Source of the DNA: an uncultured Acidobacteriota bacterium
GTDB lineage: Bacteria > Acidobacteriota > Terriglobia > Terriglobales > Acidobacteriaceae
Assembly (NCBI GenBank): GCA_963712365.1
Contig: CAVQHO010000001.1
Coordinates: 32,608-96,607, forward strand
Direction of reading: 5' to 3'
DNA length: 64,000 nt
The notes under the pieces are model-generated. The model was not told where the DNA came from. It made no database searches and saw only the letters and a program-made list of their open reading frames with translations. This document shows positions 7,776 through 64,000 of the stretch, piece after piece; within the stretch, counting starts at the first letter, position 1, and each line of letters starts with the position of its first letter. The position numbers and the translations under genes are program-made.

Positions 7776-7795
7776 CAAACGGTGAAAACGACGTT

Positions 7796-8607: not shown

Positions 8608-8694
8608 AGTACCGCGTTTCTAGGTGTGCAGCGTCAGCACAGCAGCGCCTTCCTGTCTATGCAAGAATGAAAAGCTGAGGAACCGAGGCGGCAA

Positions 8695-11446
8695 GTGAGC
8701 ACCACTCCAGATTCGCGAACGCAACCGGCAGACGACGGGTCAGTGATCGCACGCTCACGGCCAGCCAGTCTGGATTCTTTTTTCTGTCCCCGCTCAGTGG
8801 CGCTCATCGGCGCAACCGATCGTCCTGGAACCGTCGGATGGAGCGTCTTATCAAATCTTCTGGAAAGTAAATCTCCGCTCGCGATCTATCCCATTACTCC
8901 GACCCATGAAAAGGTCATGGGGATCGATGCTTACAAACGCGTGACCCACATTCGCGGAGGCGCGGATCTGGCAATCGTTGTAACTCCCGCTAAGGTTGTG
9001 CCGCAAATTATTGGGGAGTGTGTGGATGCAGGTATCAAATATGCAGTGGTAATCTCCGCGGGCTTTCGCGAGCGCGGACCCGAGGGCTTAAATCTCGAAG
9101 ACGCGATCGCAAATCACTTGCAGCGCGGAAAGATGCGCTTGCTGGGTCCGAACTGCATGGGATTCATGAATCCAACCGTAGGGTTGAACGCAACATTTGC
9201 GAAATCCATGCCGGCTAAAGGCAGCGTCGCGTTCCTCAGTCAGAGTGGCGCGCTTGAAACAGCGATTCTGGACTGGAGCCTTCGCGAACACGTAGGTTTC
9301 AGCGCAATCGTCTCTACTGGATCGATGCTCGACATAGGGTGGGGCGATCTTATCTATCACTTTGGGAACGATCCGCACACAAAAAGCATCCTGGTTTACA
9401 TGGAGTCGGTGGGAGATGCCCGATCATTCCTATCGGCCGCTCGCGAGATCGCACTGAGTAAGCCCATCATCGTTATAAAGGCTGGAAGGTCGGAAGCCGG
9501 ATCGCGTGCAGCCGCGTCTCACACAGGGGCCATGACCGGAAGTGATGAGGTTCTCGAGGCCGCCTTCCGGCGTTGCGGCATTTTGCGCGTCCACAACCTG
9601 GCGGATCTTTTTTATATGGCAGAGGTGTTGAGCAAGCAGCCACGGCCGCGGGGACCACGGCTCAGCATAGTGACCAATGCCGGCGGCCCGGGAGTTCTCG
9701 CCACTGATGCCCTCTTGGCCAATGGCGGTGAGCTGGCCGCCCTCTCAGCCCAAACCATAGAAGCCTTGAATGGATGCCTTCCTGCTCATTGGAGCCACAG
9801 CAACCCTGTTGACGTTTTGGCCGACACGGACGCAGAGCGATACGCCAAAACCATCGAGATCGTCTCCGAAGATCCCGGCGCCGACGGATTGCTTGCCATC
9901 ATCGCGCCGCAGGGTCTGGCCGATCCCACCAAAGTCGCGCAGCAAATATCTAAGTACGCTCACAGCACGACCAAGCCAATCATCGCGAGTTGGATGGGCG
10001 GCGATGGCGTTGCGGAAGGCACCGCAGATCTCAATACGGCGGGAATCGCAACATTCTCATATCCCGACACTGCGGCGCGAGCGTTCACTTACATGTGGCG
10101 TTATACCTACAATCTGCGCGGACTGTATGAAACGCCTTCGCTGGTGGAAGAAACGGAGCCGTCCGAGAATTCACGACATGAGGCAAGCGCCATGCTCCAA
10201 CGAGCGCGCGATTCGGGCCGAACGCTGCTGAACGAGTTCGACTCGAAACAGATCCTCGTAGCGTACGGTATCCCGGTTGTCCAAACCTGTGCGGCGTTCA
10301 CAGAAGAAGATGCAATAGCCAAGGCGACAGAAACTGGGTTTCCCGTTGCGGTAAAACTCCTGTCGAACACCATCGCCCACAAGACGGATGTCGATGGGGT
10401 GTGGTTGAATCTGCAGAATCCCGAGCAGGTTAGAGACGCCTTCCGCTCGATTCAGATTTCGGTGGCAAGCAAACGAGGAGCGGATCACTTCGGCGGCGTC
10501 ACCGTGCAGCCGATGATACGGCGCGATGGATACGAACTCATATTCGGGAGCACGGTCGATCCGCAATTTGGTCCTGTGATTTTGTTCGGATCTGGCGGAA
10601 TCATGGCCGAAGTCTATCGGGACTACGCCATCGCCTTGCCTCCACTCAATACCACGCTGGCTCAGCGCCTGATCGAACAGACGCACATTCATAGAGCGTT
10701 GAAAGGCGTGCGCGGCCGCAAGGCGGTGAATATTCCCGAACTGCAAAAGCTGCTCGTGCGTTTCAGCCAGCTTGTTCTCGACCAACCTTGGATAAAAGAG
10801 ATCGACGTGAATCCGTTGCAGGCGGCAGAGGATCAATTCATCGCCCTCGATGCACGCATTGTCATCCACGATTCTTCGATGACGGCGGATCGGCTGCCGC
10901 GTCCATCGATCCGTCCATATCCCTCTCAATATGTATGGCAAACGCAACTAAAAAATGGAACCTCCGTCACCATCCGGCCGATTCGCCCCGAGGACGAACC
11001 ACTGATGGCGCAATTTCACACCACGCTTTCGGAACGCAGCGTCTACCTTCGCTATTTTTGTTCGTTAAGCCTGACGGCGAGAGTGGAGCACGATCGCCTC
11101 GCGCGGATTTGTTTTGCGGGATACGATCGAGGCTTCGCGCTGGTGGCCGAACACTATGAATCCGCGTAGCAGATCACCTGAAATTTTAGGTGTGGCCCGT
11201 TTCAGCGCAATCAATCGCGTGGAGGCCGAAGCCGCCGTTATGGTTTCCGATCAATGGCAGGGTCGTGGGCTGGGAACGGAACTAATGGCAGGACTTGGGC
11301 GCGTTGCGAAAGCTGAGAAATTCCAGCGACTCTCAGGAGAAATCCTGCGTGACAATCTGGCCACACAAGCCATTTTCAAGAAGATCGGATTTCACTTCAG
11401 GGCCACCGAAGACCCCACTTCGATATCGGCGTTTCTCGATCTTTAG
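8695..11446 (+). pseudogene. Pat-like bifunctional ADP-forming acetate--CoA ligase family / GNAT protein acetyltransferase, one frame disruption
   Basis: GTG at 8695. CoA-binding domain (SVALIGATDRPGTVG), succinyl-CoA-synthetase-like and ATP-grasp domains, then a GNAT domain. The GNAT is split between ORF 8695..11169 (..YDRGFALVAEHYESA*) and ORF 11114..11446 (..PEILGVARFS...QWQGRGLGTELM). The frame change lies near 11155-11170. Confidence 0.8.
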
Positions 11447-13343: not shown

Positions 13344-15340
13344 ATGTTCGCGCGAACAACACGGAGACAAGTTGCGTCTGGAATCGCTCTCACCCTCTTT
13401 TTTACGCTGAATTCAGATGCGCGGCGGCAAAGAAAGAACCTACCTAAGCCTACCGCGGACGAGTGCCTTGCCTGTCACAGTGACGCCACCCTAACTCACG
13501 ACGTCGGCGGCAAGCCAGTGAGCCTGCATGTCGATCCGCAAGCTTTCAAGGACTCGATCCACGGAAGCATGTTCACATGCGTGGACTGCCACACCGATGT
13601 GAAGAGTTCGCCCCACGAAACCACGCCTAGGAAAATCAGCTGCGCGACTTGTCATGCTGACCAGCAGGCTGCGTACGATCGCAGCTTCCATGGCAAATCG
13701 GTCCAGGCTGGCAACCTGAAGGCCGCCACTTGTGTGGATTGCCACGGCGGCCCTCACGAATTGCTGCCGGCGAGCGATCCGAAAGTCTCGAGTCAATCAC
13801 GCCAACATTCCTGCGACTTGTGGCGCGTGTCACAGCCAGAAGTTCGTCATGCAGGATGGCGGCCAGAGCGCGCAGATGGTCGCGTCGTATGCGGAGAGCG
13901 TGCATGGTCATGCCGTGGCCGCTGGTTCGGAGAAAGCAGCTGTCTGTACGGATTGCCATGGCGCCCACGAGATCCTCGACGCCAGAGATTCGAAGTCTCC
14001 GATATTCAAGTTCAATGTGCCGCTGACCTGCGGAAAATGTCACGACACCATCTCGAAAGAATTTCAGCAAAGCATCCACGGAACAGCCGTCGCCCGAGGT
14101 AACTGGCAAGCGCCGGTGTGCACTGATTGTCACGGCATCCATTCGATTAAGGCTCACACAGATCCGAACTCCCCCGTTTCAGCACAAAACATCGCGCAGG
14201 CAACTTGCGCCCGTTGTCATGAAGGCGTTCGGCTCTCGCAGGAATTCGGCATCGAAGGGCGCCGCGACATCGACCTATCTTGCTAGTTATCACGGCCTCG
14301 CGTCCCGCATGGGTTCTCAGGTCGTCGCCAACTGCGCCAGTTGCCACGGCACCCACAGCATTTTCCCATCCGAGCGATCCGCGATCAACGATCAACAGCG
14401 CTAATCTCGCCCGAACTTGCGGGCAGTGTCATCCTGGGGTAACAGAGAAGTTCACTGCCGCCAAAGTTCATGTCGATGCGCCGCTCTCCGCTGATGTCGG
14501 CAGTAAAGCGGTTCGCTGGATTCGGAGCTTCTACTCAGCATGATCGCCATGGTGATCGGCGGCATGCTGCTGCACAACCTAATCATCTGGCGATCCAAGA
14601 TTATTGCCCGGCGCAAATTGCAGCAAAACTTCGTGACTCGAATGCCCCTGCGCTTCCGTTGGCAGCATGCTGCCCTGCTGACCAGTTTCTTCACCCTTGT
14701 ACTGACTGGATTCGCATTGAAGTTTCCCGGCTCGTGGTTCGACGCGCTGCTGGGAATGACGAGCACCTGCGGCATCTGCTGCATCGCGTCGCGGCTATGG
14801 TGCTGATCGGCGTGAGCTTCTACCATATCTTCGACATTGCCTTCACCCGCGAAGGCCGCAAACTGGTTCGCGACTTGTTCCCCACACTAGACGATGCCCG
14901 GGGCGCGTGGCAGAATGTCGCCTACTACCTGGGCTTGAGTTCCAGCAAGCCGGAGTTTCCGCGGTTCAGCTTACGCAGAAAAAGCGGAATATTGGGCTCT
15001 GGTGTGGGGCATGATCGTCATGGCCGTCACCGGCATCATGCTGTGGGCCAAGGTTTTCTTCGGAAACCATGTACCCCGATGGTGGCTTGATATCGCGACC
15101 GCTGTTCACTTCTACGAAGCGATTCTGGCGACTCTCGCGATTTTCGTCTGGCATTTCTATCAGGTGTTCTTTGACCCCGATGTATATCCGATGAACTGGG
15201 CTTGGTGGGACGGAAAGATGACGCTGCACCATTACCGCGAAGAGCATGGTTTGGACGAGAATCCGCAGATCCACTCCGCTGATGCGGTAAGCGAAAGAAA
15301 GAACGTCGAGAGCAGCAGGCGACGAAAGAGAACCGGCTGA
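13344..15340 (+). pseudogene. CbcL-like fusion of an 11-heme c-type cytochrome with an FdnI/HydC-type cytochrome b membrane domain, multiply frame-disrupted
   Basis: ORF fragments 13332..14102, 13732..14286, 14219..14404, 14280..14543, 14540..14806, 14470..15090 and 15002..15340 join colinearly. They give signal MFARTTRRQVASGIALTLFF and 11 CxxCH motifs (CLACH, CVDCH, CATCH, CVDCH, CGACH, CTDCH, CGKCH, CTDCH, CARCH, CASCH, CGQCH). TM helices follow (RFRWQHAALLTSFFTLVLTGFALKF; YAEKAEYWALVWGMIVMAVTGIMLW; HFYEAILATLAIFVWHFY). The frame changes near 13790, 14255, 14368, 14537, 14758 and 14968. Confidence 0.75.
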
Positions 15341-15348
15341 GGTCAATC

Positions 15349-16868
15349 ATGGACGCTGACAGAACTGCAGCTCCGATCGAGCAACGCCATCGCTTGCGAA
15401 TGCTTCTGCGAAATCCCATCAGTCTTGCCGGCGTCGCTCTAGCAATCGTCAGCGTGGCCAATATCTTCATATTCGTTCTGATCGATTTGATTGCGACCAA
15501 GGCGAGTCCCTACATCGGGATCCTGGCCTACATGGTGTCTCCGGGGTTCCTCGTGCTAGGCCTCTTGCTCATGGTCGCGGGAATTTTGCTTGAGCGCCGC
15601 AAGAAAGTCGTCGCTACCGACTTCTATCCGAAGATCGACCTGAATGATCGCGCTCAGCGCAGCGCTGTAATCTCATTTGCGACTTTCCTGATCGTCTTCG
15701 TCATGGTCAGCACGGCAGGCAGCTACAAGGCTTACGAATACACGGAGTCTGTCGCTTTTTGCGGACAGCTCTGCCACACAGTGATGAGTCCGGAGTACAC
15801 CGCTTATCAGCTTTCTCCGCATGCGCGCGTCGCTTGCGCCGAATGTCATGTCGGGAACCGGCGCAACCTGGTTTGTGAAATCGAAACTTTCAGGAAGCCG
15901 CCAGGTTTTCGCCGCAGCCTTCAATACCTTCCCACGCCCCATCCCCACGCCGGTGCACAACCTGCGTCCTGCGCAGGAGACCTGCGAACAGTGCCACTGG
16001 CCGAAGAAGTTTTACGGCGGACAGCTGAAAGTTTTCACGCATTATTCCAGCGATGAAAAGAACAGCATGCGACAAGTGAGGATGATCATCAAGACCGGCG
16101 GTGGCGATCCGGCTACAGGCGCTCCCGAAGGCATCCACTGGCACATGAACATCGCGAACAAGATCGACTACGTCGCTGCCGACGAAAAACGCCAGACGAT
16201 TCCCTACATTCACGTCGAGGATCAGCAAGGCCGAGTCACCGAGTATTACGCGAAAGATTCAACACTCAACAAAGATCAGATCGCGAAGACTCCGCGTCAC
16301 CACATGGATTGTGTCGACTGCCACAACCGCCCCACTCATATCTATGTCTCTCCGGACCAGTCCGTCGATCAGTCTCTGCTGGCCCATCGCATCGATTCTT
16401 CCCTGCCATTTATCAAGCAGGAGGCCGTCACCGTGCTGACCGCAAGCTACCCGACCACGGATGCTGCGGTTCAGGGAATCGCAAAAGGGATGGAGGACTT
16501 CTACGAGAGCAAGTATCCTGATGCGGCCAAGACGAAACAATTGGAGATCCGTGACGCCGTCGCGGAAGTCCAACAAATCTTCAAACGCACCACATTCCCC
16601 GAGATGAAGTTAAATTGGCAGACTCATCCCAATAATCTCGGCCACTTTTATTACAACGGATGTTTTCGCTGCCACGACGGCCAGCATGTCAGCAACGACG
16701 GCAAAGTGATCAGCAAAGAGTGCAACCAGTGCCACACGTTGCTGCCCGAGCCAGGAACTGCGAGCGTGGCGTCGAATACACACGCCGTCCTTCCAGCATC
16801 CCGTCGACATCGGCGACCTGACACAAGTGAACTGCGCCGACTGCCACACTGGCGGAGTCGGGCCTTAA
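15349..16868 (+). pseudogene. ImcH-like inner-membrane 7-heme NapC/NirT-family cytochrome c, frame-disrupted
   Basis: ORFs 15349..16056 and 15821..16939 plus a third-frame tail FQHPVDIGDLTQVNCADCHTGGVGP* (TAA 16866-16868). Three N-terminal TM helices. Hemes CGQLCH, CAECH, CEQCH, CVDCH, CFRCH, CNQCH, CADCH. The frame changes near 15856 (extra A in GGGAACC) and near 16785. Confidence 0.75.
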
Positions 16869-16948
16869 CAGCAAGGCGTCGAACACTGGTGTCCCATCGA
16901 ATTCGCACCGACACGCTCATCTCTAAGCAGGGGGCATAGAATAGCGGC

Positions 16949-17823
16949 GTGAAAAACACGCGCCGCACCTCGCCAGACTTCTTTACCTTTCTTACAGTTG
17001 CGGCATCCACACTCGCGTTCATCGTTCTTTGTTCCGCGGTGACCCTCGGAGACGGCCCCAACCACGCCACGACCGCGGCGGATCGCCTCAATGAGCCGTG
17101 GTGGGCCGAACGTCACAAAGCGATTCTCGATTCCATCCAACACCATCCGGACGCACAACTCTTGATGATTGGCGACTCCATCACCAACAACTACGACAAG
17201 TCCCGGCCGCCGGATGAAAATTTCCTTCCCACCTGGCAGCAGTTCTACGAACCACGCAAGGCGCTCAATCTCGGATTCAGCGGCGACACCACTGCGCACG
17301 TTCTGTGGAGGATCAATCATGGCGAAGTCGACGGACTTCATCCCAAGGTCGCCATCGTCCTGATCGGCACCAACAACACCGGGCACGGAGACACCGCCGA
17401 GGAAACCGAGACCGGCATCGACGCCGTCATCACCGAGCTGGAAAATCGTCTGCCGGAGACGCATATCCTGCTTCTCGGCATTTTGCCGAGCGCGATCTCC
17501 GACAACAAAACGGAGCGCGATCAGCCGTCAACCGCTATCTGGCAACCTGCTACTCCGAAAACCCGCAGGTCACATATCTGGATATTGGATCCATCTTTTT
17601 CTCGAACGGAACGCTCAATACCTCACTCTTTTACGATCCCCGCCTGCCGCAGCATGGCAAGCCACTGCATCCCGACACCAACGGTCAGCGCATGATGGCG
17701 GAAGCCATCGAGCCCACTCTGGCGAGAATGGATGCACGACACACCGCAGCAACCTCTAGCATCCATGACCGACATCAACACGGCGGTGATTCCTGTCGAG
17801 CGCCTCGAACCCGACGTCTATGA
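16949..17823 (+). pseudogene. SGNH/GDSL hydrolase (PAF-acetylhydrolase-like esterase), frame-disrupted
   Basis: LLMIGDSITNNY (block I Ser), NLGFSGDTT, IVLIGTNN. After a frame change near 17520 it continues ..YLDIGSIF...PLHPDTNGQRMMAEAI (block V D..H-like). The 3' end overlaps the next gene and is uncertain. Confidence 0.7.
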
Positions 17824-18458
17824 CTGGTACGCCCGTCACCACGCGGAACTCGACCTGATCAAACACGTGCAACCGCGGGTCGTTCTGATCGGAGATTCCA
17901 TCACGCATTTCTGGGGAGGCATGCCGAACGGAACTACCGTCAACGGTGCTCAGGCATGGCAGAAAGTCTTCGGCGGCATGCCCGTCATCAACATGGGCTT
18001 CGGATGGGACCGCACGCAGAATGTGCTTATGGCGTCTTCGCCAGGGAGAATTCGACGGCCTTCATCCGCAATGGGTCGTACTGGCCATCGGAACCAACAA
18101 TCTGACCGGCACAGAGCACGCGCGCGCCAGCACTCCTCAGGAAATCGTCGAAGGCATCGACGCCATCTGCAAAGAAATCAGCCAGCGTTCACCTGAAACG
18201 CCACATCATTCTGATGGCGATCTTTCCACGCGGCGCGAAATCCGGCGATCCTCTGCGAGCTCCGATCCAGCAGACCAACAGCTTTTAGCCGAGCGCTTCG
18301 CCTACCAGCCCTCCATCACCTTTCTGGACATCGGCCAACAGTTCCTTGCACCAGATGGCTCTCTGCCCGCGGACCTGTTTCCCGACGGCACTCATCCCGC
18401 CCAAGCCGGATATCAGATCTGGGGAGACGCCCTGATCAAGGCAGGAATCAGGCCGTGA
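17732..18458 (+). pseudogene. Second SGNH/GDSL hydrolase, frame-disrupted
   Basis: YDWYARHH...VVLIGDSITHFW, NMGFGWDRTQNVLWRL, VVLAIGTNN, DGTHPAQAGYQIWGDAL. The frame changes near 18026. A compensating pair near 18200 and 18280 hides the stretch HIILMAIFPRGAKSGDPLRAPIQQTN. Confidence 0.7.
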
Positions 18459-18589
18459 TCTCCCGCCAAACCGCGAGACTCTGAAGTTGGCCCCACCCGC
18501 ATGTCGCTTTAAACGTTTCCCGAAAATGGATGTAACGATTTTTCGTGACCCATCACCATCGGGATGTGACCGGTGCCAGCAAACAGCGC

Positions 18590-20146
18590 ATGAAAACCAG
18601 AATCCTTATCTATATCCATCTTGCACTTGCAATTTCCGTTCCTGCGTTGTCCGCTCAAATGATCGACAACACGCAGGCCACAAGTACTGCGGCCGCGGGA
18701 ATCAACAAGTCCCTTGCCGATGAAATCGGCGCCGGCCGGGGCAGCATCCTCACTCCCGGATCGTCTCTCTACATCATCAAGCGCGATCCCTACCGATCGG
18801 TCCGCCGCGGACGCCAACTGTTCCAGCGGAAATTTACCCAGGCTCAAGGTCAAGGACCGAATGATGGCGACGGCAGTGGCGACATCAACACCAACCTCGC
18901 CATCGGCGCAGGGCTCACTGACAGCTGCGCGCTCTGCCACGGCCGTCCGCGCGGGTCCGCCGGCGCCGGAGGCGATGTCGTCACTCGCCCCGACAGCCGC
19001 GACGCTCCTCACCTGTTCGGCCTCGGCCTCCGCGAAATGCTCGCGGACGAGATGACCACAGACCTTCGCAGAACGCGTGATGCTGCGATCTCGGAAGCGA
19101 AAAAAGAGAAGAAATCCATAACTCTCGCCCTGTTCACCAAAGGAGTGCAGTTTGGAGCTATCACCGGAAATGCCGATGGCTCGGTCGACGCTTCCCACGT
19201 CGTCGGAGTAGATCCCGATCTGCGCGTGAAACCATTTTTCGCGGAGGGTTCTACCATTTCAATTCGCGAATTCGTCGTCGGAGCGCTTCACAAAGAGATG
19301 GGACTCGAAGCCTCATCCGATCCCGACCTGCTAAAAGCCAGCGCTGGGGCCCGTGTCGTAACTCCATCGGGCATGGTGCTCGACGGTTCGAAGGACAAGA
19401 TCTCGCCGCCTCCGGCTCCCGACGCTCAGAATGGAAACGAGGCCGATCCCGCTCTCGTCGATCACCTCGAGTTCTATCTTCTCAACTATTTCAAGCCCGC
19501 TCACCACGAGCAGACTCCCACGACCGACCAGGGTCGTGCCGTCTTCGGCAGAATCGGTTGCGCGTCCTGTCACGTCTCCGACATGACGATCAATCACGAC
19601 CGCCGGGTAGCCGACCTTGAAACTGCCTACGATCCAGTCAACGGCGTCTTCAACTCGATGTACGCGACCGCCACTACCCTCTACTACTCGAAGGACGACG
19701 GGAGCGGATATCCCGACCTCAAACTGCCGCTCGCACGTTCATTCCTCGTCAAAGAAATCTTCACCGACTTCAAACGCCATGACCTCGGCGCAAACTTCTA
19801 CGAGCGCAACTGGGACGGAACTCTACAAACTCAGTTCCTGACTCGGGCGCTTTGGGGCGTGGGAAGCACCGGACCTTATGGCCACGATGGACGCAGCATG
19901 ACTCTTCGCGACGTCATTCTTCGTCACGGTGGCGAAGCACTCTCTTCACGCAATAATTTCTCGGTATTGAAGCCGTCCGAACAAGATAGTTTGATCGCGT
20001 TCCTCAACTCGCTTGTCCTGTTCCCGCCCGACGATACTGCGTCGTCGCTTGACCCCGCTGATACCACCAAAACGAACTTTCCACAGTTCGCATACGGTAG
20101 CGTCAAGCTTACCGTGCTCTTCAACAATCCTACCGACCTCGAGTAG
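18590..20146 (+). CDS. DUF1111 family di-heme oxidoreductase (putative peroxidase / thiol oxidoreductase), exported
   Basis: ATG at 18590 gives the signal MKTRILIYIHLALAISVPALSAQ. Two heme motifs (CALCHGRPRGSAG, GCASCHVSD) in the DUF1111 arrangement. The reading frame is intact. Confidence 0.8.
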   Translation: MKTRILIYIHLALAISVPALSAQMIDNTQATSTAAAGINKSLADEIGAGRGSILTPGSSLYIIKRDPYRSVRRGRQLFQRKFTQAQGQGPNDGDGSGDINTNLAIGAGLTDSCALCHGRPRGSAGAGGDVVTRPDSRDAPHLFGLGLREMLADEMTTDLRRTRDAAISEAKKEKKSITLALFTKGVQFGAITGNADGSVDASHVVGVDPDLRVKPFFAEGSTISIREFVVGALHKEMGLEASSDPDLLKASAGARVVTPSGMVLDGSKDKISPPPAPDAQNGNEADPALVDHLEFYLLNYFKPAHHEQTPTTDQGRAVFGRIGCASCHVSDMTINHDRRVADLETAYDPVNGVFNSMYATATTLYYSKDDGSGYPDLKLPLARSFLVKEIFTDFKRHDLGANFYERNWDGTLQTQFLTRALWGVGSTGPYGHDGRSMTLRDVILRHGGEALSSRNNFSVLKPSEQDSLIAFLNSLVLFPPDDTASSLDPADTTKTNFPQFAYGSVKLTVLFNNPTDLE

Positions 20147-54821: not shown

Positions 54822-54837
54822 TGTGACCGCGCTCACA
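54822..54837. promoter_or_regulatory. CRP-type palindrome TGTGACCGCGCTCACA
   Basis: Perfect TGTGA-N6-TCACA in the divergent region between aroF and the Qrc-like operon. Confidence 0.45.
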
Positions 54838-55085
54838 GTTGTGCGAGAGCGTAAGCACAAACGAAGCAGTTTTCGCACCGCACATAACCGTGCGTTCAGG
54901 ATCGACTATGCGCTTTGGGGGCGGGATGAAGTCGCCAGGTGGAAGTGTTGGAATCGCCTACAGAGTTCGTTGGGAAAACCAACACGAGTACGCGTCTCTT
55001 CGCCGCAAGCTGTTGAGCTCACATGATGGCCATCGGCGTGCATTTCACCTGGTAGATGAGTTCCATCGAACAGGAGGTCATCGCG

Positions 55086-55382
55086 ATGGCCGGAGAAAAT
55101 TGGACGATGTGGCTGAATATTACAAACCTTGTACTTGGAATCGTCACCGTTGCTGCGCTTCTCATTGTGTTCTTCGCAGTGGGTTGGGATCTCTTGGCGA
55201 AGAAGTTTGGCCACGCCCAAACTGCGTCGGTATTGGGAAATATCGACGGTGAGTTGCGGGCACTCCTAAATGGCGGGACACACAGTTTTCGAGTCCCTGA
55301 ACTTGGGCTAACCATGGCGGACGGAGGCGAAAAAATTGAGCTCTCCGAAGATGGCAAATCCCCAAAGAAATCGCAGGAGTAA
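55086..55382 (+). CDS. Small single-pass membrane protein, first gene of the Qrc-like operon
   Basis: ATG at 55086 lies 8 nt after AGGAGG. TM helix WLNITNLVLGIVTVAALLIVFFAVGW. Confidence 0.55.
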   Translation: MAGENWTMWLNITNLVLGIVTVAALLIVFFAVGWDLLAKKFGHAQTASVLGNIDGELRALLNGGTHSFRVPELGLTMADGGEKIELSEDGKSPKKSQE

Positions 55383-55385
55383 GTT

Positions 55386-56231
55386 ATGGCCTGCCCACTG
55401 CTGCGGGAAGGTAAGGCGCGGTATTGCCATGCGGCCCCGGTTCGCAAGCTGATACTCAGCGGGCCTGGCGCCACTAACGGCGGGTTGTGCGATTCTCCGC
55501 AGTACCGCAGCTGTGAATTGGCTGCAAAAGATGCGGAGGCGCTTGATCGCTGTCCAGGGCTGGAGGAGATACGCGTACAGTACTGCGGGGTCTCGCCCGT
55601 GCCGCAATTCATTCCGTTCAGCGATTCCCAATTGTCAGGATGCACGAGCGACAACTACCGTTATTGCGATTCCTACTTGCATCTGTCGCAACCTCACGTC
55701 ACAAAGCCGCCTGCGACGCTTCTCTACTCTCCAAATCATTTCTGGCTGGATGCGGAGGAGTCGGGACTGTGTCACATCGGCGTCGATGCATTCGTCGCCG
55801 ATATCGCGGGTCAGGTCGACGGCGTAACGTTCGTCACGGCTCGCGGGACGCACTGCCCCGCCCTGGCGCTAACGATAAACGGCGTCGAATGGCCGATGAG
55901 CTTCCCGAATCCGATGATGATTCAAAGAGTGAATGGGCGCTTGCGCAGCGATCCCGCCCGATTGACCCTGGATCCGTACGGAACAGGATGGTTGTTCGAA
56001 GGCTGGGAAGTTCCGGGCCGAACGCGGACGGGCTTGCTTCGATCGCCGCAGGCAGATCTCTGGCAGGCCAATGAGCGCGAACGACTGAATCAAGAAATTC
56101 ACGACAGGCACGCTCCCGGATGTGATGGTGGAACCCCGGTCAAGGGTGTAGCGCAATTACTCGAGCGCCAGCACCTGGTCTGTCTGTTCCAGCATTTTTT
56201 CTCAAGAACGGACTGGACGGCGGAAAAATGA
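55386..56231 (+). CDS. Cys-rich protein with glycine-cleavage H-protein-like domain (no lipoyl-Lys evident)
   Basis: Duplicated N-terminal module CP.L.E....YC...P...(I)........C.S..Y..C at residues 3-43 and 56-94. Then YSPNHFWLDAEESGLCHIGVDAFVADIAGQVDGVTF...DPYGTGWLFE resembles the GcvH fold. No signal peptide. Confidence 0.7.
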   Translation: MACPLLREGKARYCHAAPVRKLILSGPGATNGGLCDSPQYRSCELAAKDAEALDRCPGLEEIRVQYCGVSPVPQFIPFSDSQLSGCTSDNYRYCDSYLHLSQPHVTKPPATLLYSPNHFWLDAEESGLCHIGVDAFVADIAGQVDGVTFVTARGTHCPALALTINGVEWPMSFPNPMMIQRVNGRLRSDPARLTLDPYGTGWLFEGWEVPGRTRTGLLRSPQADLWQANERERLNQEIHDRHAPGCDGGTPVKGVAQLLERQHLVCLFQHFFSRTDWTAEK

Positions 56232-56818
56232 AGATTCATCGCAACCTGATCTTCTTCACGTTGGGAGTGGCCACCGCATTATTTGTGGGCTGGTTTCTAT
56301 TTCCGCGACTTCTTTACGTGAAGAAAAATCAGCCTTTCGATTTCCTTCACAAAACGCATGCAGACAAGTCAGGTCTGAGCGACTGCAGTGAATGTCACAC
56401 CATTCACGAAGATGGAAGTTTCTCTGGCCTGCCTCCGACCGAAAAATGCGCTGGTTGCCATTCCGATCGGCTGGGCGAAAGCAAGGCCGAAGCGTTGTTA
56501 GTAAACGACTTCGTCAAACCCGGTCATGAGACTCCATGGCTGGTCTATTCAAAGCAGCCGACGAATGTCTGGTTCTCGCACGCGATTCATGTCAAACGGG
56601 CAAAGCTTGCGTGCTCGGAATGTCATTCCAGCTACGGGGACAAAGACGAAGTTCGAATTTACGAGGTCAACCGGATTAGCGGATACAGTCGGGATATTTG
56701 GGGACACTCGATATCGCGACTGCGGCGTGCGCAGCACGACGGCATGAAGATGACCGACTGTGAGGCATGCCATTCGCGTCACCACGTGGAAACAGGCTGC
56801 CTCGGTTGCCATCAATGA
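56228..56818 (+). CDS. qrcA: Membrane-anchored pentaheme cytochrome c3 family protein (QrcA/ActA-like)
   Basis: N-terminal TM helix. Five CxxCH motifs (CSECH, CAGCH, CSECH, CEACH, CLGCH). ATGA overlap with the upstream gene. Confidence 0.75.
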   Translation: MKIHRNLIFFTLGVATALFVGWFLFPRLLYVKKNQPFDFLHKTHADKSGLSDCSECHTIHEDGSFSGLPPTEKCAGCHSDRLGESKAEALLVNDFVKPGHETPWLVYSKQPTNVWFSHAIHVKRAKLACSECHSSYGDKDEVRIYEVNRISGYSRDIWGHSISRLRRAQHDGMKMTDCEACHSRHHVETGCLGCHQ

Positions 56819-56828
56819 AAGGTCGAAG

Positions 56829-58499
56829 ATGAAGTTCAGTCGGCGGGATCTTCTGTTATGGGGTGCAGGGGCCGCGGTAGGCGCCGTGGCCACTCCAGTG
56901 CCATGGAAGGTATTGGACGATGTTTCGATCTGGAGCCAGAACTGGCCGTGGATTCCGCAGCCGCCCCGCGGACCGGTGGAAGTGAAAGCGTCGTTCTGCT
57001 CATTGTGTCCGAACGGATGCGGGCTGCGCGTGAAGATGTCATCCGGCTACGCAGTGGGTGTTGCGGGGATGTCGACGCATTCAGTCAGCCGAGGGGTGTT
57101 GTGCCCTCTCGGATACGCCGCCCATCAACTCAATTGGCATCCGCGCCGACTCAAGACTGTGAAGCATCGCGGGATGAGTTCATCGTGGGGCGAGGCGCAA
57201 TCAGCGTTTGTGAAGGCCTGCAGCGAGGGCGCGATCATGGTCATCGACGGCTATCCCGGGAGAGCAGCTTCCTCGGTATTGCAGTCGTTTGTAGAAAAGC
57301 TGCATGGCTCCTACCGCGCCCTGCCCAATTCGGAAGTACGAACCCTCTTGCCTTACGAAAAATGGATCGGGGGTTCCGCTCATTCGCTTGGCTATGATCT
57401 CGAAAACGCACGAACCGTCGTCAGCTTTGGAGTTCCCTTGCTTGATGGATGGGGCGTCCCGGGTCGGTTTCCCTGGCTCTGGGCCGAAGGTGGCACGGGC
57501 GGCCGCGATGCAAAGTTGCGGCTCATACAAGTCGATGCTTCGATGTCGCGGACAGCCGCTCGTTCCTGGCGATGGGTATCGATCAAGGAAGGATCGGAGT
57601 CGGCTCTAGCAGCGGGATTAGCCAAGGCACTGATTCAACAGAAATTAATACCGGCTCACGATGAATTCGCGTTGCCTACCCTTCCTGATGTCGCGCAACA
57701 AACAGGCTTGCCGGTAGATGCCATTCTGGACCTGGCGCGAGTTGTCGTAGAACGAGGTCCTGTGGTGGGGATTGCTCGCGATGAAAATCCTGCGGTTGCG
57801 GCTTTGAATGTGGTGCTTGGATCTGTCGGCGTACCCGGTGGAATCGTACGTAGATCAACAGCTGAGGTGACTCGTCCTCAGACCCAACAGACGCGTCCGA
57901 AAGTTCGAGCTGTCTTGCTAGATGGAAGCGTCCCTTGGGATTTCACGATTGATACCGATGCTGAAATCTTTCGCTTTGCCGCCTGGGATGGCGGCGCGAA
58001 AACAGCGGACTGGCTGCTTCCAGCCCCAGGCTTTCTCGAAGAAGTGTCCGACATACCCGCGGCGCCTACAGCCTCAGTGGACACGTACACGATCGCAGCG
58101 AGTCTGACAAAGCCTGCTTTCGAAGTGCGCAGTGCTGCCAAGTTTCTGACTGGCGTGGAGCCCAACCTAACTCCAATCGAGGAGATCATCCATGCTCGCT
58201 GCCAGAATCTTTTTAGGCGGCGAGCAGGCGCTGTTCACAGAGAAAAAGCGATTCCGATCTCAGAGTTCGCCTCTGCACAGAAATTAGAAGAGGCGCTATC
58301 AAACGGCGCCGTGTGGGTCAACGACGGCAAGGCCGGTGCCAAGATCGAATGCCGACTACGAGAATGGCCCACCTCCACTTTAGTCTCGCAACAGGACGAT
58401 TGGGCAGCGTCGTGGCAACCGCCAGTTCTCCCTCCGCTGGCGTCAAAGCTCTTCGTCGAGTCGAAATTAAGAAACTCTCCCAACCGGAGTAACACATGA
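56829..58499 (+). CDS. qrcB: Tat-exported molybdopterin-oxidoreductase-like subunit (QrcB-like, probably cofactor-less)
   Basis: MKFSRRDLLLWGAGAAVGAVATPVPWKVLDDVSIWSQNWPWIPQPPRG and FS0 motif CSLCPNGCG. At 556 aa it is shorter than catalytic PsrA-type subunits. Confidence 0.75.
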   Translation: MKFSRRDLLLWGAGAAVGAVATPVPWKVLDDVSIWSQNWPWIPQPPRGPVEVKASFCSLCPNGCGLRVKMSSGYAVGVAGMSTHSVSRGVLCPLGYAAHQLNWHPRRLKTVKHRGMSSSWGEAQSAFVKACSEGAIMVIDGYPGRAASSVLQSFVEKLHGSYRALPNSEVRTLLPYEKWIGGSAHSLGYDLENARTVVSFGVPLLDGWGVPGRFPWLWAEGGTGGRDAKLRLIQVDASMSRTAARSWRWVSIKEGSESALAAGLAKALIQQKLIPAHDEFALPTLPDVAQQTGLPVDAILDLARVVVERGPVVGIARDENPAVAALNVVLGSVGVPGGIVRRSTAEVTRPQTQQTRPKVRAVLLDGSVPWDFTIDTDAEIFRFAAWDGGAKTADWLLPAPGFLEEVSDIPAAPTASVDTYTIAASLTKPAFEVRSAAKFLTGVEPNLTPIEEIIHARCQNLFRRRAGAVHREKAIPISEFASAQKLEEALSNGAVWVNDGKAGAKIECRLREWPTSTLVSQQDDWAASWQPPVLPPLASKLFVESKLRNSPNRSNT

Positions 58500-59239
58500 G
58501 AGCGCGGTACGGCATGGTTATCGATCTCGACCGATGCACCGGATGCGGCGCATGCATGGTCGCATGTACAGCTGAAAACAACGTTCCGTCCCTTCCACAA
58601 GCGAGTGCGCGAACCGGCATCACTCCGGTGCTCGTGCGCCGAGTGTCCAACGGAATGGAAGGCATCGCGAAGCGAGAAATATTTATTCCGATCATGTGCG
58701 CCCACTGCGAACACGAAACTCCGTGCGTGAAGGTGTGTCCGCAACAAGCTGTGGAAGTGGACAAGGCAACAGGGATTGTCATGCAGATGCCGCAGCGCTG
58801 CCTTGGATGCCGCTATTGCATGACTGCGTGTCCTTATCACGCCCGCTACTACAACTGGTGGGATCCTTCATGGCCGGCAGGGATGGAGAGTAGCCTGAAT
58901 CCGGGAGTGGCGGTGAGGATGCGGGGCGTAGTCGAAAAGTGCAACCTTTGTCACGCACGCTTCCACGCCGCTAAAGAAAAAGCGGCTGCGGCTGGCCGAT
59001 CGGAGATCGATCCAGCCGATTACATCCCGGCATGCGTGGAATCCTGCCCGACAGGCGCAATCCGATTTGGAAATCTCGCGGACACGCAAGATCCCGTCTC
59101 AGAAGAAGTGAAGGCGCCCGAGACGTTTCAATTACTTGCGCGTCTTGGCACGGCGCCGAAGGTTTACTACAAGTCGAGGGAACCATGGGTGAGAAATCTG
59201 GCGGAACCCGGGCGCCAGTCGGAGGCTCAGCATGGCTAG
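58496..59239 (+). CDS. qrcC: 4Fe-4S ferredoxin-type subunit (QrcC/PsrB-like)
   Basis: YGMVIDLDRCTGCGACMVAC, CAHCEHETPCVKVCP, CLGCRYCMTACPY, CNLC...CVESCPTGA. Confidence 0.85.
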   Translation: MRARYGMVIDLDRCTGCGACMVACTAENNVPSLPQASARTGITPVLVRRVSNGMEGIAKREIFIPIMCAHCEHETPCVKVCPQQAVEVDKATGIVMQMPQRCLGCRYCMTACPYHARYYNWWDPSWPAGMESSLNPGVAVRMRGVVEKCNLCHARFHAAKEKAAAAGRSEIDPADYIPACVESCPTGAIRFGNLADTQDPVSEEVKAPETFQLLARLGTAPKVYYKSREPWVRNLAEPGRQSEAQHG

Positions 59240-60493
59240 CACGGTTCTCACTGACGCTCGATGGATCAGTCGCGGGGAAGAAAGGACGTCGCTCACGCGA
59301 TTCCTGCTGTGGCTCGCACCCTGGGCGTTGCTGCTGGTCCTTGGCGTCTATGCGGCCGGTCTTTGCCTCTACTTCGGCCTCAACCAAACGAACATGGACA
59401 ACCGCTTTGCCTTCGGGCTCTGGATCTTTCTAGATCTCGGCATCATTGCACTGGGAGCAGGAGCGTTCTTTACCGGATTGCTCGTTTATATTCTGAAACG
59501 AACGGAATTGAAGCCGATCTTGAACACGGCCGTCGTCGTTGGGTTTATCTGCTATAGCGGTGCGGTCGGCATACTGATGATCGATGTGGGGCAACCGTTA
59601 AGGGCGTGGTTCACATTCTGGCATCCGAACACACACTCCATGCTCACGGAGGTCACGTTCTGCATTTCGTGTTACCTGCTGGTGCTTAGCCTCGAGTACA
59701 TCCCCTTGCTGTTGCGCAACCGAAACCTAAGCAAGATACCCTCATTCCTTGTCTTCGAACATCAACTGCACAAACTAGTTCCCGTTCTCGCCGGCGTTGG
59801 AACGCTACTCTCCTTCTTCCATCAGGGATCGCTTGGTGGACTGTACGGAGTGCTGCGAGGACGGCCATTTGCCTTCAGGGACGGCATCCTGATCTGGCCG
59901 TCAACGTTTTTTCTGTTCATCCTTTCAGCAATTGCCTCGGGCCCGAGCTTTCTGATGTTGATCGCCGCCACCGCCGAGAAGCTCACGGGCGGAAACTCGT
60001 GCCGAGCCAGTTATTTCGACGCCTCGGATTTATATCGGGAACTCTGCTTGGTGTTTACGTCGCGGCAAAATCGATTGATACGCTGATCTGGCTTAACTAC
60101 ACATCCCCAGCTGAAGGTTTCGAACCCTGGCAGTTCTACTCTTATCGTCCCTTCGGTACGCCGATTCTGTTCGTTGAGATTGTGCTTCTAGGTTTGGTGC
60201 CGGCGTTCCTGTTGACGTTCCGAAAGACAGCCAATCGGAAGGGTCTGCTTCTTACGGGCGCGGCATTGGCTTGCGTAGGGATATTGCTGAACAGATTCGT
60301 CCTAACGATTCAGACCCTAGCGCTGCCGACGCTTCCATTCGATGAGTTCCTGAAGTACACGCCGAGTTGGCAGGAAGTCGCCAGCTTCGGTGGAGTCGTG
60401 GCATACGGGGTGATTGTTTACTCACTGTCGTATCGATATTTGCCGCTTTTCGCGAACTCAAAGGGAGAGGACACGCATGTTTCCGGGAATTGA
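59232..60493 (+). pseudogene. qrcD: NrfD/PsrC family quinone-interacting membrane subunit (QrcD-like), one frame disruption
   Basis: ORFs 59232..60086 and 59999..60493 join at ..AEKLTG/(R)KLVPSQLFRRLGFISG, consistent with one missing C in ACGGGCGGAAAC near 59990. Multiple TM helices. Confidence 0.8.
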
Positions 60494-61301
60494 CGGATTT
60501 CACTGGGCGTTCGGCCATGTTCTTTTTCTAACGCTGTTCTTCGCCGTGGTTCTAACGATTTCCGCAACCATCGCTTCAGCGGTAATGAAGACCGTCAACG
60601 ATTTTCGGAGCCACAAAGCCGCTGAGCTGTGCTGGAAATCGCATTTCTCAAAGGTGCCCGATTCCAGCAAGCGATGCCGCCATGAACTGGCTGGAAGAGT
60701 CATCTCGAGAACCTGCGACAACAACTTTGACTGCCGAACCTGCAAGAACTACTCGCACTTTGCGGTACTGCCAGCATCAGGCAATGCACATCCGTGTGGG
60801 CTGGATTTCCCAGACGACCGCCTGTATCACCGAGGTCATACTTGGGTGAAAACGGTTGAGGATGGAAATTTGCTTGTCGGGCTAGACAGCCTGGCAGAGT
60901 GCCTAATCGGCGATCCTGATTCTGTCCGGATGCCAGATTTAGGCGACGAAATCGAGGCGAATCAGACCGCGTGGCGCATCCGGAAGAACGGGGCCGAGAT
61001 CTCTGTTCGCGCGCCGATCGAAGGAACGATCCTGGAGGTTGGCGGACCCGGCAAGGGCTGGTATCTCAAGATGCGCCCACGATCAGATCTGAACGACCGC
61101 GTGGCATTGCGCCACCTTCTCCGTGGACCGGAAGTGAGAGGATGGATCTCCCGAGAAATGGAGCGCCTGCAGATCCAGCTGCGAACACCTGACAGCGCTC
61201 CTGCGCTTGCAGATGGCGGGGTGCTGCTGCCCCACCTGATGGATTCAATCCTAGAGGCAGACTGGGACGCAGTACTATCCGACACGTTCCTCACTGATTG
61301 A
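60477..61301 (+). CDS. Membrane-anchored Cys-rich protein with second GcvH-like domain
   Basis: ATG at 60477 follows AGGGAGAGG and overlaps the qrcD end by 17 nt. TM helix FGHVLFLTLFFAVVLTISATIASAV. Cys cluster CWKS...CRHE...CDNNFDCRTC. Then YHRGHTWVKTVEDGNLLVGLDSLAECLIG...APIEGTILEV...GKGWYLKM. Confidence 0.7.
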   Translation: MFPGIDGFHWAFGHVLFLTLFFAVVLTISATIASAVMKTVNDFRSHKAAELCWKSHFSKVPDSSKRCRHELAGRVISRTCDNNFDCRTCKNYSHFAVLPASGNAHPCGLDFPDDRLYHRGHTWVKTVEDGNLLVGLDSLAECLIGDPDSVRMPDLGDEIEANQTAWRIRKNGAEISVRAPIEGTILEVGGPGKGWYLKMRPRSDLNDRVALRHLLRGPEVRGWISREMERLQIQLRTPDSAPALADGGVLLPHLMDSILEADWDAVLSDTFLTD

Positions 61302-61318: not shown

Positions 61319-62675
61319 TCAGTGCGAGATTTCGTAACGCTTGAGTTTGTCGTAGAGCGTCGAACGGTCAATCCCTAACGCCATGGAAGCTTCCTTTACG
61401 TTGCCGTGCTTTCTTTCCAGGGCTGCCAGGATTGCGCGCCGTTCCAATTCATTCAGCGAAACCTCTGGAACCTCCCACTCCTCCGCCTGACCTGGCACTG
61501 GCTGCATCCACGAAAAGTCCTGTTCCTCAAGAGTGCCGTTGTGACAGGTCACGATGGCTCTCTCGATTACATTTTCCAGTTCACGAACATTTCCGGGCCA
61601 GTCATGACTCAACAGCAATTTCAGGGCTCCGCTGGAGATTCCGGTGATATCTTTTCCGAGCTCTGTTGAAATGCGCTGGACAAAATGCTCGGCAAGCAGG
61701 GGAATATCTTCACGGCGTTCGCGTAAGGCAGGAAGTCGAATCTCGATGACGTTCAGCCGGTAGAAAAGATCTTCGCGAAATCTTCCGTGCTGCACTTCTT
61801 CCGCCAGATTTTTGTTTGTCGCCGCGATGACTCGAACGTCGACCTCGACTTCTTGCGTTCCGCCCACACGATAGAAGCGACGCTCCTGAAGAACGCGCAA
61901 GAGATCGGCCTGTAGCTTGGGAGAAATGTCTCCAATCTCATCGAGGAAGATCGTGCCTCCTGCCGCTGACTCAAACTTGCCTTTTGCTTGACTAGTCGCC
62001 CCGGTGAAAGCGCCTTTCTCGTAGCCGAACAGTTCACTTTCCAAAAAGTGTCTCAGTCAGGGCAGCGCAACTCACCGCAATAAATGGTTTGTCGGCACGG
62101 TTGCCGGAGAAATGAACTGCACGCGCGACGAGTTCCTTGCCCGTACCACTCTCGCCGCGAATGAGGACGGTGCTGCTCAGGCTGGCGACTTCCTGCGTTA
62201 GGGAAAGGATCTCGCCCATCCGCGGATTTTTGGTGATGATGTCGTGATGGCGGTATTGTCGCGTGAGCTTCTTGCGAAGAATTGCATTTTCACTTTGCAG
62301 CTTTTTCAGCTTGAGAATCCGTGAGACTAGCATCGAGATCTCCTGCGGATTGCAGGGTTTTACGATGTATTCCTGGGCGCCCTCTTTCATTGCTTGGATC
62401 GCGGTATCGACGGTTGCGTATGCAGTGATGATGATGATGGAAGCTTCGGGACGAAGGCGATGGATTTCCATCATGGTTTCGATTCCGTCCATGCCCCCGG
62501 GCATTTTGAGGTCAACGAAGCAAATGGCATAGTCTGTGGAGCGGGCTTGCTCGAGCGCCTTTTGGCCGTTCGCCGCGGTATCGACTCGGTAGCCATCTTC
62601 GCGCAACCACGCAGCCATCGACTCGCACATTACGTCTTCGTCGTCGACGACAAGAATCGGCCAGTTCTTTTTCAT
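61319..62675 (-). pseudogene. Sigma54-dependent response regulator (NtrC family), one frame disruption
   Basis: ORF 62034..62675 holds the receiver domain (ILVVDDE...FVDLKMPG) and Walker A (GESGTGKE). ORF 61319..62044 holds [15 protein letters not shown], the rest of the AAA+ domain and a Fis-type HTH. They join if one A is removed from the A5 run (CCAAAAAGTG) near 62040. Confidence 0.85.
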
Positions 62676-63221
62676 ATTCCTGCCTCCCCCGAAAATCGTT
62701 GGACCAGATGCGATCCACAGCGGTCACAGAATCTCTCTTCCTTTGCTATCCACAAGTTCCACGTGGGTGGCCAGGCTCATTGCGCAACTGGGCTCGGAAC
62801 AGTGGACCAATCCGAATGTGTGCCCGAGTTCGTGCAGCGCTTCTTTGACTGTGCGCTCGCGCAACAAACTTTCCTGTGCGGAAAGACCATAGAACTCCTG
62901 GCGCAGTCGGCACAGAGATATCAGGGCGATAGGCCCGTCGAACTGTGCCTGTCCAAACAAGAAAGTGAGCATCGGGATCGCAAGGTCCACATCCGTAACT
63001 CCGAGGACACGAAAGGCGTCTCGTGGGGCAAGTTGTGCAAGCATTTTCATGATTTCGACCGACTGGTATTGTCCTCGTTTCGGGTCATAGGCAGAGTCTG
63101 GAATGTTTAAAGGAGGAAGCCGTCGTATCGGCAGCGGAAACCATTCGGCCGCCGCCTTTTCGATCCACTCCAGCACGCTCGGCAAAACGGAACCCACAGG
63201 CACGAGGCAAAGGTCGTTCAC
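62672..63221 (-). pseudogene. Archaemetzincin (peptidase M54) family zinc protease, one frame disruption near the 3' end
   Basis: HELGHTFGLVHCSEPSCAM fits HEXXHXXGX3CX4CXM. The expected CXXC (FCDRC) follows in the +1 frame after about 62740. That frame ends in a TGA overlapping the NtrC ATG (ATGA). Confidence 0.7.
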
Positions 63222-63248: not shown

Positions 63249-64000
63249 TCATTTGCCCCGCTTCGTGACCTTCAGGGGAAGACTCACAGTAAAAGTCGTA
63301 CCTTCATTCAGTCGGCTTGCCACTTCAACTTCTCCCTCATGTGCCTTCACAATCCCGTACAGCACTGCCAGACCAAGACCGACTCCTTTCCCTTCAACCT
63401 TTGTGGTGAAGAATGGATCAAAGATCTTGGAGACGTTTTCGGGTGCGATGCCTTCCCCGTTATCCTGAACCGAGAGTTCTACGACACCTTCCTCAGCGAT
63501 CAGACGAGTTCGGATCGTAAGCGTGCCGCCGCCTCGCGATTGCATGGCCTGCGCGCCATTGAGGACGAGATTCAAAATGACTTGCTGAATCTGCGAGGAA
63601 TCGCATTCCACTAGACGGAAGGTCTGGCCTGAAGTCCAGCACGACCTCGGCGCTAATCAACTTCAATTTGTGGTCTGCCAACCCGATGGTTGTCTGCACC
63701 AGTTTGTTGAGATCGGCGGGTGCACGCTGCGGCTTCGAGCGTCGGGAAAACGCAAGAAGGTCGGAAACGATGCGTCCGACGCGCGCGGTCTCAGCCGAGA
63801 TCATACCGAGATATTTACGGAATTCTGCTTCGCGGCCGGCGGGATAGTTGCCGCTCACCATCAGTCGTTCGAGAAGCATGGAGAGATTCAGAACTCCCGA
63901 GATCGGATTATTGATTTCGTGGGCCACGCTGGCCGCAAGTTGTCCGAGCGTCGCCAGCCGATCGGATTGCACCAGCTTTTTCTGCGCCGCTTTCAGTTGC
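63249..64000 (-). pseudogene. Sensor histidine kinase (partial, runs off the window), one frame disruption
   Basis: H-box SDRLATLGQLAASVAHEINNP (ORF 63493..63972, open to the window edge). HATPase_c region N-box QVILNLVLNGAQAM, DNGEGI and GKGVGLGLAV in ORF 63249..63611. The frame changes near 63615. Confidence 0.8.

Follow-up and report, generated by a model that had tools for sequence, protein, structure and literature searches.

A Qrc-type operon of Acidobacteriota with a predicted sigma54 promoter and three additional genes for putative cytoplasmic-face proteins

Why does an operon for a Qrc-type respiratory complex contain genes of Cys-rich proteins that resemble the H-protein of the glycine cleavage system (GcvH)? 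The question is raised by a seven-gene operon at 55086-61301 of a stretch of 64,000 nucleotides (nt) of the Acidobacteriota contig CAVQHO010000001.1 (hereafter the window; coordinates are positions in it). Through Qrc, electrons from periplasmic hydrogen and formate enter the quinone pool of sulfate reducers. Our answer, which we hold with moderate confidence, is that this is a two-component-controlled sigma54 operon that would encode a Qrc-type cytochrome c:menaquinone oxidoreductase plus three extra proteins acting on the cytoplasmic face of the complex. These proteins, g1, g2 and g7, are most likely accessory subunits of a Qrc variant. The genes of the operon, with product lengths in amino acids (aa), are the following:

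55086-55382, + strand: g1, 98 aa; AGGAGG lies 8 nt before the ATG
55386-56231, + strand: g2, 281 aa; eight-Cys region and GcvH-fold domain
56228-56818, + strand: qrcA, 196 aa; membrane-anchored pentaheme cytochrome c with five CxxCH motifs and an N-terminal helix
56829-58499, + strand: qrcB-like gene, 556 aa; shortened molybdopterin-oxidoreductase-like subunit with the Tat motif SRRDLL and C-x2-C-x3-C-x27-C
58496-59239, + strand: qrcC, 247 aa; four-cluster ferredoxin subunit
59232-60493, + strand: qrcD, NrfD-type quinone-interacting membrane subunit, in two frames here
60477-61301, + strand: g7, 274 aa; transmembrane helix, four-Cys motif and GcvH-fold domain

The seven genes are packed as a first-pass annotation of this DNA had described them. 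Its coordinates are exact, the motifs that it quoted are present, the gaps do not exceed 10 nt, and there are overlaps of 4, 4, 8 and 17 nt, including 4 nt between g2 and qrcA and 17 nt between qrcD and g7. The QrcABCD architecture that it proposed for the central part is borne out too: NCBIfam Qrc equivalog models were the best match for all four central genes. QrcA scored 208.2 bits on NF041781 (cut-off 180), and among solved structures the ActA subunits of alternative complex III come closest to it (6f0k, 8.8e-15); no Qrc structure was present among the PDB entries searched. QrcC reached 317 bits on NF041782 (cut-off 400) with DsrO next at 160, and the QrcC of locus L084, from an Ignavibacteriales metagenome-assembled genome (MAG), reached 341. 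The two open reading frames (ORFs) of qrcD gave 388 and 156 bits on the QrcD model (positions 2-248 and 258-404; cut-off 570), the next family, HmcC, giving 85. Intact QrcD proteins scored 551 in L004, a close relative, 571.5 in L084 and 575.7 in L085, a Thermoanaerobaculia MAG, against 102-129 for HmcC/HybB. By these scores the QrcD proteins of intact relatives are genuine members of the QrcD clade and not merely NrfD proteins, and the central four genes can be classed as Qrc orthologues at or near the NCBI equivalog cut-offs.

The QrcB-like protein is the most divergent in its scores. NF041783 was its best match with 211 bits (cut-off 440), covering only model positions 1-367 of 695, and Pfam matched Molybdop_Fe4S4 and TAT_signal. 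Against solved Mo enzymes the N-terminal cluster domain alone aligns and the Mo-ligand region is not alignable, which is consistent with the cofactor-less QrcB of Desulfovibrio (Nitratidesulfovibrio) vulgaris (PMC6303296). In Terriglobia-type operons QrcB has 556-590 aa, and in distant orthologues 590-730 aa, so the short form is a trait of the window's lineage. The QrcB proteins of L084 (3372-5477) and L085 (4834-6996), with 700-730 aa, have detectable Molybdopterin and Molydop_binding domains. The lengths across lineages suggest a progressive reduction of the Mo-enzyme-like subunit.

What, then, are the three additional proteins? The first, g1, has one transmembrane helix followed by LG(L/I)TMADGGE (LGLTMADGGE in the window), a motif that is invariant from Acidobacteria to Ignavibacteriales in the family alignment; no family in Pfam or NCBIfam matched this protein. 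In g2 two four-Cys repeats of the form C-x10-C-x18/20-C-x7-C (C3, C14, C35, C43 and C56, C67, C86, C94) are followed by a GcvH-fold domain and a C-terminal extension bearing (A/C)DGG. The eight cysteines, NHxW, GWLF and the C-terminal (A/C)DGG are kept down to 37% identity, and an exact look-up found no record of the window g2 sequence itself. The invariant elements of g7 are CRH-x11-C-x5-C-x2-C, YHRGHTW and a C-terminal LADGG, with C67, C80, C86, C89, R119 and H121. The two proteins are paralogous over the H-like domain and tail (BLASTP 6e-6). Pfam GCV_H was matched above its gathering score by both g2 (E = 1.1e-4) and g7 (E = 2.6e-7), and GcvH chains were the only significant matches in PDB sequence searches (g2 1.5e-4, g7 1.4e-7); a profile search with g2 gave 2.4e-10 over H-protein residues 3-127. 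The AlphaFold2 model of g7, built from an alignment of 62 diverse homologues, has a predicted local distance difference test score (pLDDT) of 87.8 and shows an N-terminal helix (12-44) followed by a Cys-rich segment, then a beta domain and finally helices at the C-terminus. In Foldseek against the PDB its top 21 matches were all GcvH, with TM-scores of 0.72-0.78, root-mean-square deviations of 2.3-3.0 Å over about 128 residues and E of 2e-8. The GcvH fold, already supposed in the first-pass annotation, is confirmed for g2 by sequence and for g7 by sequence and modeled structure.

From this fold the same annotation had derived a possible carrier role, by which the GcvH-like proteins would bind and carry lipoate or relay sulfur or redox equivalents as LbpA of sHdr does; in its favor are the real fold and the dissimilatory sulfur metabolism of Candidatus Sulfotelmatobacter, the host lineage (PMC6018796). 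However, the position of the lipoyl-lysine, whose absence had been overlooked, is occupied by Gly in g7 and by Asn or His in g2 and is variable in both families (28 to 62 homologues) and in soluble relatives of g7. The NCBIfam GcvH model NF002270 gave scores of 26.9 and 36.5 bits for the two proteins against a cut-off of 117, and the locus has no lipoate ligase or synthase genes. We consider a lipoate-carrier role most improbable.

A feature common to g1, g2 and g7 is the ADGG motif. In g1 and g7 the residues on either side of the helix obey the positive-inside rule, and g2 has no signal peptide; the ADGG parts of all three proteins should lie in the cytoplasm, whereas QrcABC are periplasmic. 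We considered whether ADGG is the cleaved diglycine C-terminus of a ubiquitin-like carrier and set this aside, as the residues of g7 after ADGG are conserved and confidently folded. For the Cys-rich regions, PDB profile searches found nothing beyond the GcvH domain. One family member, P0352 (413 aa), combines an N-terminal transmembrane helix with two tandem GcvH-like and tail modules and has no Cys4 motif, a further case of modular shuffling.

How stable is this arrangement across taxa? We scanned one genome per GTDB species with a profile of 16 g7 sequences, which gave 256 genomes with a g7 relative, and analyzed the best 80 of the 256. Those best 80 loci are all from Acidobacteriota with at least 51% identity (Candidatus Sulfotelmatobacter, Acidoferrales, Bryobacteraceae, Terriglobales). 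Of these loci, 72 had sufficient contig upstream, and every one of the 72 had all seven genes in colinear order inside 7 kb. Distant contexts came from a separate protein search with contig look-ups (n = 8), and here the same order was present in all eight, at g7 identities of 30-45%, including Ignavibacteriales, Thermoanaerobaculia and Bryobacteraceae-type relatives. With the same order in 72/72 informative species genomes, the arrangement is not due to chance, and the neighborhood annotated in a single genome proves to be kept well outside the circle of its near relatives. Median identities to the window were 78-83% for QrcD, 79% for QrcC, 72% for g2, 69% for QrcA, 65% for g7, 57% for QrcB and 56% for g1. 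Both g2 and g7 are better conserved than QrcB, which we count as purifying selection; the constraint on the accessory proteins is no weaker than that on two of the core subunits. At L063 the operon occurs twice in inverted orientation with identical scores (3600-9816 and 13378-18816), either as a true duplication or as an assembly artifact. Three loci of 51-68% identity (L024, L060, L083) are labeled Ilumatobacteraceae, Eisenbacteria and Eremiobacteraceae, which probably reflects mis-binning and otherwise a recent transfer.

The operon can also be traced in published expression data. Dyksma and Pester reported that CO124, an acidobacterial MAG of a sulfate reducer, has qrcABCD and that these genes are transcribed under anoxia (PMC10564751). 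In supplementary file 3 of that paper genes 48-54, on one contig, correspond to g7, qrcDCBA, g2 and g1. Gene 48 is labeled "Glycine cleavage H-protein" and has one predicted helix, gene 53 bears the same label and has no helix, and gene 54 is a hypothetical protein of 87 aa ending in ...LGLTMADGGEKLD (PMC10564751). Reads for genes 49-54 were present only in the four samples of one condition, which is anoxic according to the text of the paper, and the g2 homologue (gene 53) was the most significant, with a log2 fold change of -4.7 and an adjusted P of 0.003 (PMC10564751). The paper discusses qrcABCD only and not the neighboring homologues of g1, g2 and g7.

Which signals could control the operon? 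The region 5' of g1 and the genes 3' of g7 contain the following features:

54822-54860, no strand: two adjoining palindromes read directly, TGTGACCGCGCTCACA (54822-54837; CRP-like, also TGT-N10-ACA) and TTGTGCGAGAGCGTAAGCACAA
54946-54962 and 54969-54985, no strand: repeats TGTTGGAATCGCCTACA and GTTGGGAAAACCAACAC, invariant alignment blocks of the TGT-N10-ACA kind
55027-55042, + strand: sigma54-type -24/-12 element TGGCCATCGGCGTGCA, 59 nt before the g1 ATG
61319-62675, - strand: sigma54 response regulator (receiver, AAA+ and HTH_8), Pfam on two ORFs
62724-63221, - strand: peptidase M54, an archaemetzincin-type zinc peptidase with HELGHTFGLVHC (Pfam PF07998, 1.8e-17)
63249-64000, - strand: histidine kinase (HisKA and HATPase_c, Pfam), running off the window end

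The sigma54 pattern, scored as TGGY-N8-[TG]GCW, was found 43-69 nt 5' of g1 in 62 of 75 related loci, compared with 28 of 800 random 120-nt windows (3.5%). By this count there is a positionally conserved sigma54 promoter before g1, and activation from it is a prediction. The CRP-type palindrome, behind which the operon had been placed at first, is present and kept in close relatives, but the promoter of the operon is the sigma54 element. The palindromes were located by alignment of relatives, an inverted-repeat finder giving nothing at its settings, and are conserved in close relatives only (L004-L008, L026, L033, L051); they are probably the binding region of a regulator. The repeats at 54946-54985 may serve the sigma54 response regulator as upstream activator sites, and similar GGAAnnCCnACA / TGTCGGAAATCCG elements occur 5' of distant Qrc-type operons and of the genes of the soluble relatives. 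The adjacent sigma54 two-component system was recognized correctly at first pass. Its cassette is convergent with g7, and the M54 gene lies between kinase and regulator. The same triad stands beside the operon in L001, L085, L086, L087 and L168, with M54 again between the two signaling genes in the last four.

If these elements act together, the adjacent regulator would activate the operon under anoxic or reducing conditions. The proteins g1 and g7 would dock on QrcD through their single transmembrane helices, and the soluble g2 would join them to form a metal-binding module of Fe-S or Zn-thiolate type. Such a module may lie beneath the cytoplasmic opening of QrcD, the site of proton uptake in the classical complex (PMC6303296, PMC13059093), and may sense or tune Qrc activity; it would neither carry lipoate nor conduct electrons across the membrane. 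With no heme-b subunit and no conserved His pair in the helices, electrons are unlikely to be transferred across the membrane.

It is useful to follow the family of g7 outside the Qrc context. A search of a representative library found soluble relatives of 300-320 aa which have a second Cys4 motif where g7 has its transmembrane helix. In sediment and wetland metagenomes such relatives belong to a four-gene cassette (L088-L167, e.g. L121:4100-8924, L134:4294-8927, L095:191-5649), for which we found no description in the literature. Histidine kinase, sigma54 regulator and M54 peptidase follow one another directly 5' of the soluble relative, on the same strand, in 45-49 of 61 metagenome loci. A near-consensus promoter, TGGCAY-N5-TTGCW, precedes the gene of the soluble relative in 55 of 68 loci, compared with 42 of 330 background windows. 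Between the Qrc-side cassettes and those of the soluble relatives, identity is 49% for the regulators (via the intact L004 orthologue) and 40% for the M54 peptidases. The recurrent cassette and promoter indicate that the Cys4/H-like proteins are the sigma54-driven target of a homologous cassette in many bacteria. By gene context the family is tied primarily to the cassette of kinase, M54 and sigma54 regulator, and to Qrc only in this lineage; here the target appears as expanded to g1-g2-qrcABCD-g7, one member having gained a membrane anchor. A plasmid search with a soluble relative found canonical gcvH only. Directly 3' of the soluble H-like gene in L118 (9211-13629) and L121 (9321-13754) lies the gene of a 1470-aa multi-flavin/ferredoxin fusion (Pyr_redox_2, Fer4_20, Fer4; HdrA/GltD-like).

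These data bear on the main rival explanation, by which g2 and g7, with g1, are a redox- or metal-sensing output or feedback module of the kinase/M54/sigma54 system and are merely co-transcribed with Qrc. Soluble relatives directly 3' of the triad with no Qrc nearby, their near-consensus promoters, the related regulators and peptidases of both contexts and the similar upstream repeats would all fit it. In the Qrc context, however, a transmembrane helix has taken the place of the family's first Cys4 motif. The translational coupling of the extra genes to qrcA and qrcD and the invariant order in 80 loci are better explained by stoichiometric subunits, and one distant Qrc-type locus has no cassette nearby. 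On this balance we regard a pure signaling module as unlikely.

Against the interpretation of g1, g2 and g7 as subunits acting on the Qrc complex, the following points must be set. At least 80 loci with soluble relatives were found in the metagenome scan and none of them was beside qrc genes; with soluble relatives as the sole sigma54 target of the cassette, the function of the family is not intrinsically bound to Qrc. The Qrc of D. vulgaris works as four subunits (PMC13059093). The CO124 transcriptomes contain no reads of the g7 homologue, gene 48 (PMC10564751). Metal binding by the Cys motifs of g2 and g7 is suggested by their conservation only, and the AlphaFold2 model of g2, from a shallow alignment, was unusable (pLDDT 38). 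Finally, the window copy has broken frames in qrcD, the regulator and the kinase.

A g7 homologue without transcripts alongside detected qrc genes would suit another possibility, that the three proteins are assembly or maturation factors for the exported QrcABC, which hold or proofread QrcB/QrcC or deliver Fe-S clusters to them. Cytoplasmic, Cys-rich proteins encoded beside a Tat-signal subunit and a four-cluster ferredoxin could have such a task. On the other side, neither the known Tat chaperones (TorD/NarJ family) nor the known Fe-S carriers are related to these proteins in fold, and maturation of classical Qrc proceeds with no help of this kind (PMC13059093). The soluble relatives are found where no respiratory complex is nearby, and a chaperone would not need the membrane anchors that g1 and g7 have. 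We judge a maturation role quite improbable, less credible than the signaling module.

The subunit interpretation can be extended to a broader and distinctly tentative proposal. The ADGG proteins and their soluble relatives may form an undescribed, widespread cytoplasmic redox/metal module, always under the kinase/M54/sigma54 cassette, which in Acidobacteriota and Ignavibacteriales would have been grafted onto QrcD. The product would be a Qrc of seven subunits in which a cytoplasmic metal-thiolate/Fe-S sensor gates the quinone chemistry or is coupled to it, and M54 may process or turn over the ADGG proteins. If true, the ADGG module would be a new principle of cytoplasmic-side control for a respiratory complex of the NrfD type.

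The frame breaks of the window copy deserve a separate question: is the system being lost in this genome? With L004 and L005 as close-relative references, qrcD, with 420 aa in intact relatives, has lost 1 nt near 59985 and so reads as two frames, 59232-60086 and 59999-60493, which the first-pass annotation had missed. In the regulator an A5 run near 62043 has one A too many, which breaks the frame, whereas the L004 orthologue is intact; the kinase is broken near 63615 and possibly also at about 63275. That these are real inactivating mutations agrees with their distribution, since four disruptions lie inside 59.9-63.7 kb and none in the approximately 8.5 kb compared upstream, all of them hit one functional system, and the genes of arginine biosynthesis that were checked in another part of the window have their full length. 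But the indels are of the homopolymer type (the A5 run in the regulator, an AA/CC context in qrcD), the close relatives stem from long-read MAG projects, and g2, qrcA-C and g7 are intact and 76-92% identical to L004. Loss of the system is possible but rather doubtful. The breaks are either an assembly error or recent decay, and the conclusions on the family are unaffected. No break affects g7 or the genes at 51.4-59.9 kb, and the other window genes checked are full length; we rejected a general tendency to frameshifts in the window, four overlapping ORF pairs checked elsewhere being separate intact genes. At 15349-16939 two adjoining + strand ORFs with NapC/NirT-type and cytochrome c7-type heme domains represent a second multiheme cytochrome locus.

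What do these observations add to the knowledge of Qrc? Classical Qrc has been described as a four-gene, four-subunit complex restricted to Desulfobacterota (PMC8076601, PMC6303296, PMC13059093). Its activity as a cytochrome c3:menaquinone oxidoreductase that draws protons from the cytoplasm is known for D. vulgaris only (PMC6303296). A 2021 survey of NrfD proteins placed QrcD in Deltaproteobacteria only (PMC8076601), and a mutational study of 2026 treated Qrc as a four-gene operon that is sufficient for complementation (PMC13059093). The present loci, with a g7 relative in at least 256 species-level genomes, widen this distribution beyond Desulfobacterota, mostly to abundant soil and peat Acidobacteriota. 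In the searchable literature we found no link of H-like proteins to Qrc or NrfD complexes, in agreement with the initial impression that such partners were undescribed for Qrc and alternative complex III. Searches on Qrc/NrfD with Ignavibacteria or Sulfotelmatobacter, or on archaemetzincin with sigma54, returned nothing relevant, and these genes are absent from the paper on the sigma54 regulome of D. vulgaris. The suggestion of an undescribed system holds in part: the accessory module is undescribed, but the complex itself is a Qrc variant. The connection of sigma54, M54 and ADGG proteins is new information, and the sigma54 two-component system with M54 gives a first genomic context to a large family that is misleadingly annotated as "glycine cleavage system H protein". 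The accessory module points to cytoplasmic control of an NrfD-type module, and g1, g2 and g7 are candidate new subunits to be sought in Qrc structures. The CO124 metatranscriptome contains these genes under anoxia, which makes the hypothesis testable in an existing enrichment (PMC10564751).

It remains to place the operon among known systems. With QrcABCD of D. vulgaris, the type I cytochrome c3:menaquinone oxidoreductase, it shares the order A-B-C-D, a membrane-anchored multiheme A, a Tat-exported, molybdopterin-oxidoreductase-like B, a four-cluster C and an NrfD-type D. In contrast to classical QrcABCD, as described in papers, it includes three extra genes, its hosts are Acidobacteriota and Bacteroidota (Ignavibacteriales) instead of Desulfobacterota, QrcA of the window has five hemes, QrcB has 556 aa with the four Cys kept, and the promoter is predicted to be sigma54-dependent. 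Alternative complex III is similar in its pentaheme ActA-like cytochrome and in its Mo-enzyme-like module, predicted here too to be cofactor-less, and its four-cluster and NrfD-type modules, and its ActD is an extra single-helix subunit with a cytoplasmic part. Identity with alternative complex III is excluded, as B and C are unfused and the operon has neither a second NrfD protein (ActF) nor a monoheme ActE; g1, g2 and g7 had no similarity to Act subunits in Pfam, NCBIfam and PDB searches. GcvH, LbpA and GcvH-L have in common with g2 and g7 the barrel-sandwich fold of the H-protein and the H-x-W signature, but g2 and g7 differ from GcvH/LbpA by the absence of the lipoyl-lysine and by added Cys-rich motifs, the membrane anchor of g7 and the ADGG-bearing C-terminal extension. 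DsrMKJOP, HmcABCDEF and TmcABCD likewise combine a periplasmic cytochrome/ferredoxin/NrfD module with a cytoplasmic Cys-rich protein. They possess a heme-b subunit and HdrD-type CCG domains, whereas the present operon has no heme-b protein, no CCG domain and no conserved transmembrane His pair. For the soluble relatives the nearest parallels are ZraSR-ZraP and PspF-PspA, where an adjoining kinase and sigma54 regulator drive a small, possibly feedback, protein from a -24/-12 promoter. The protein families are unrelated to those, M54 is an integral part of the cassette, and the target is cytoplasmic and has here become a whole respiratory operon.

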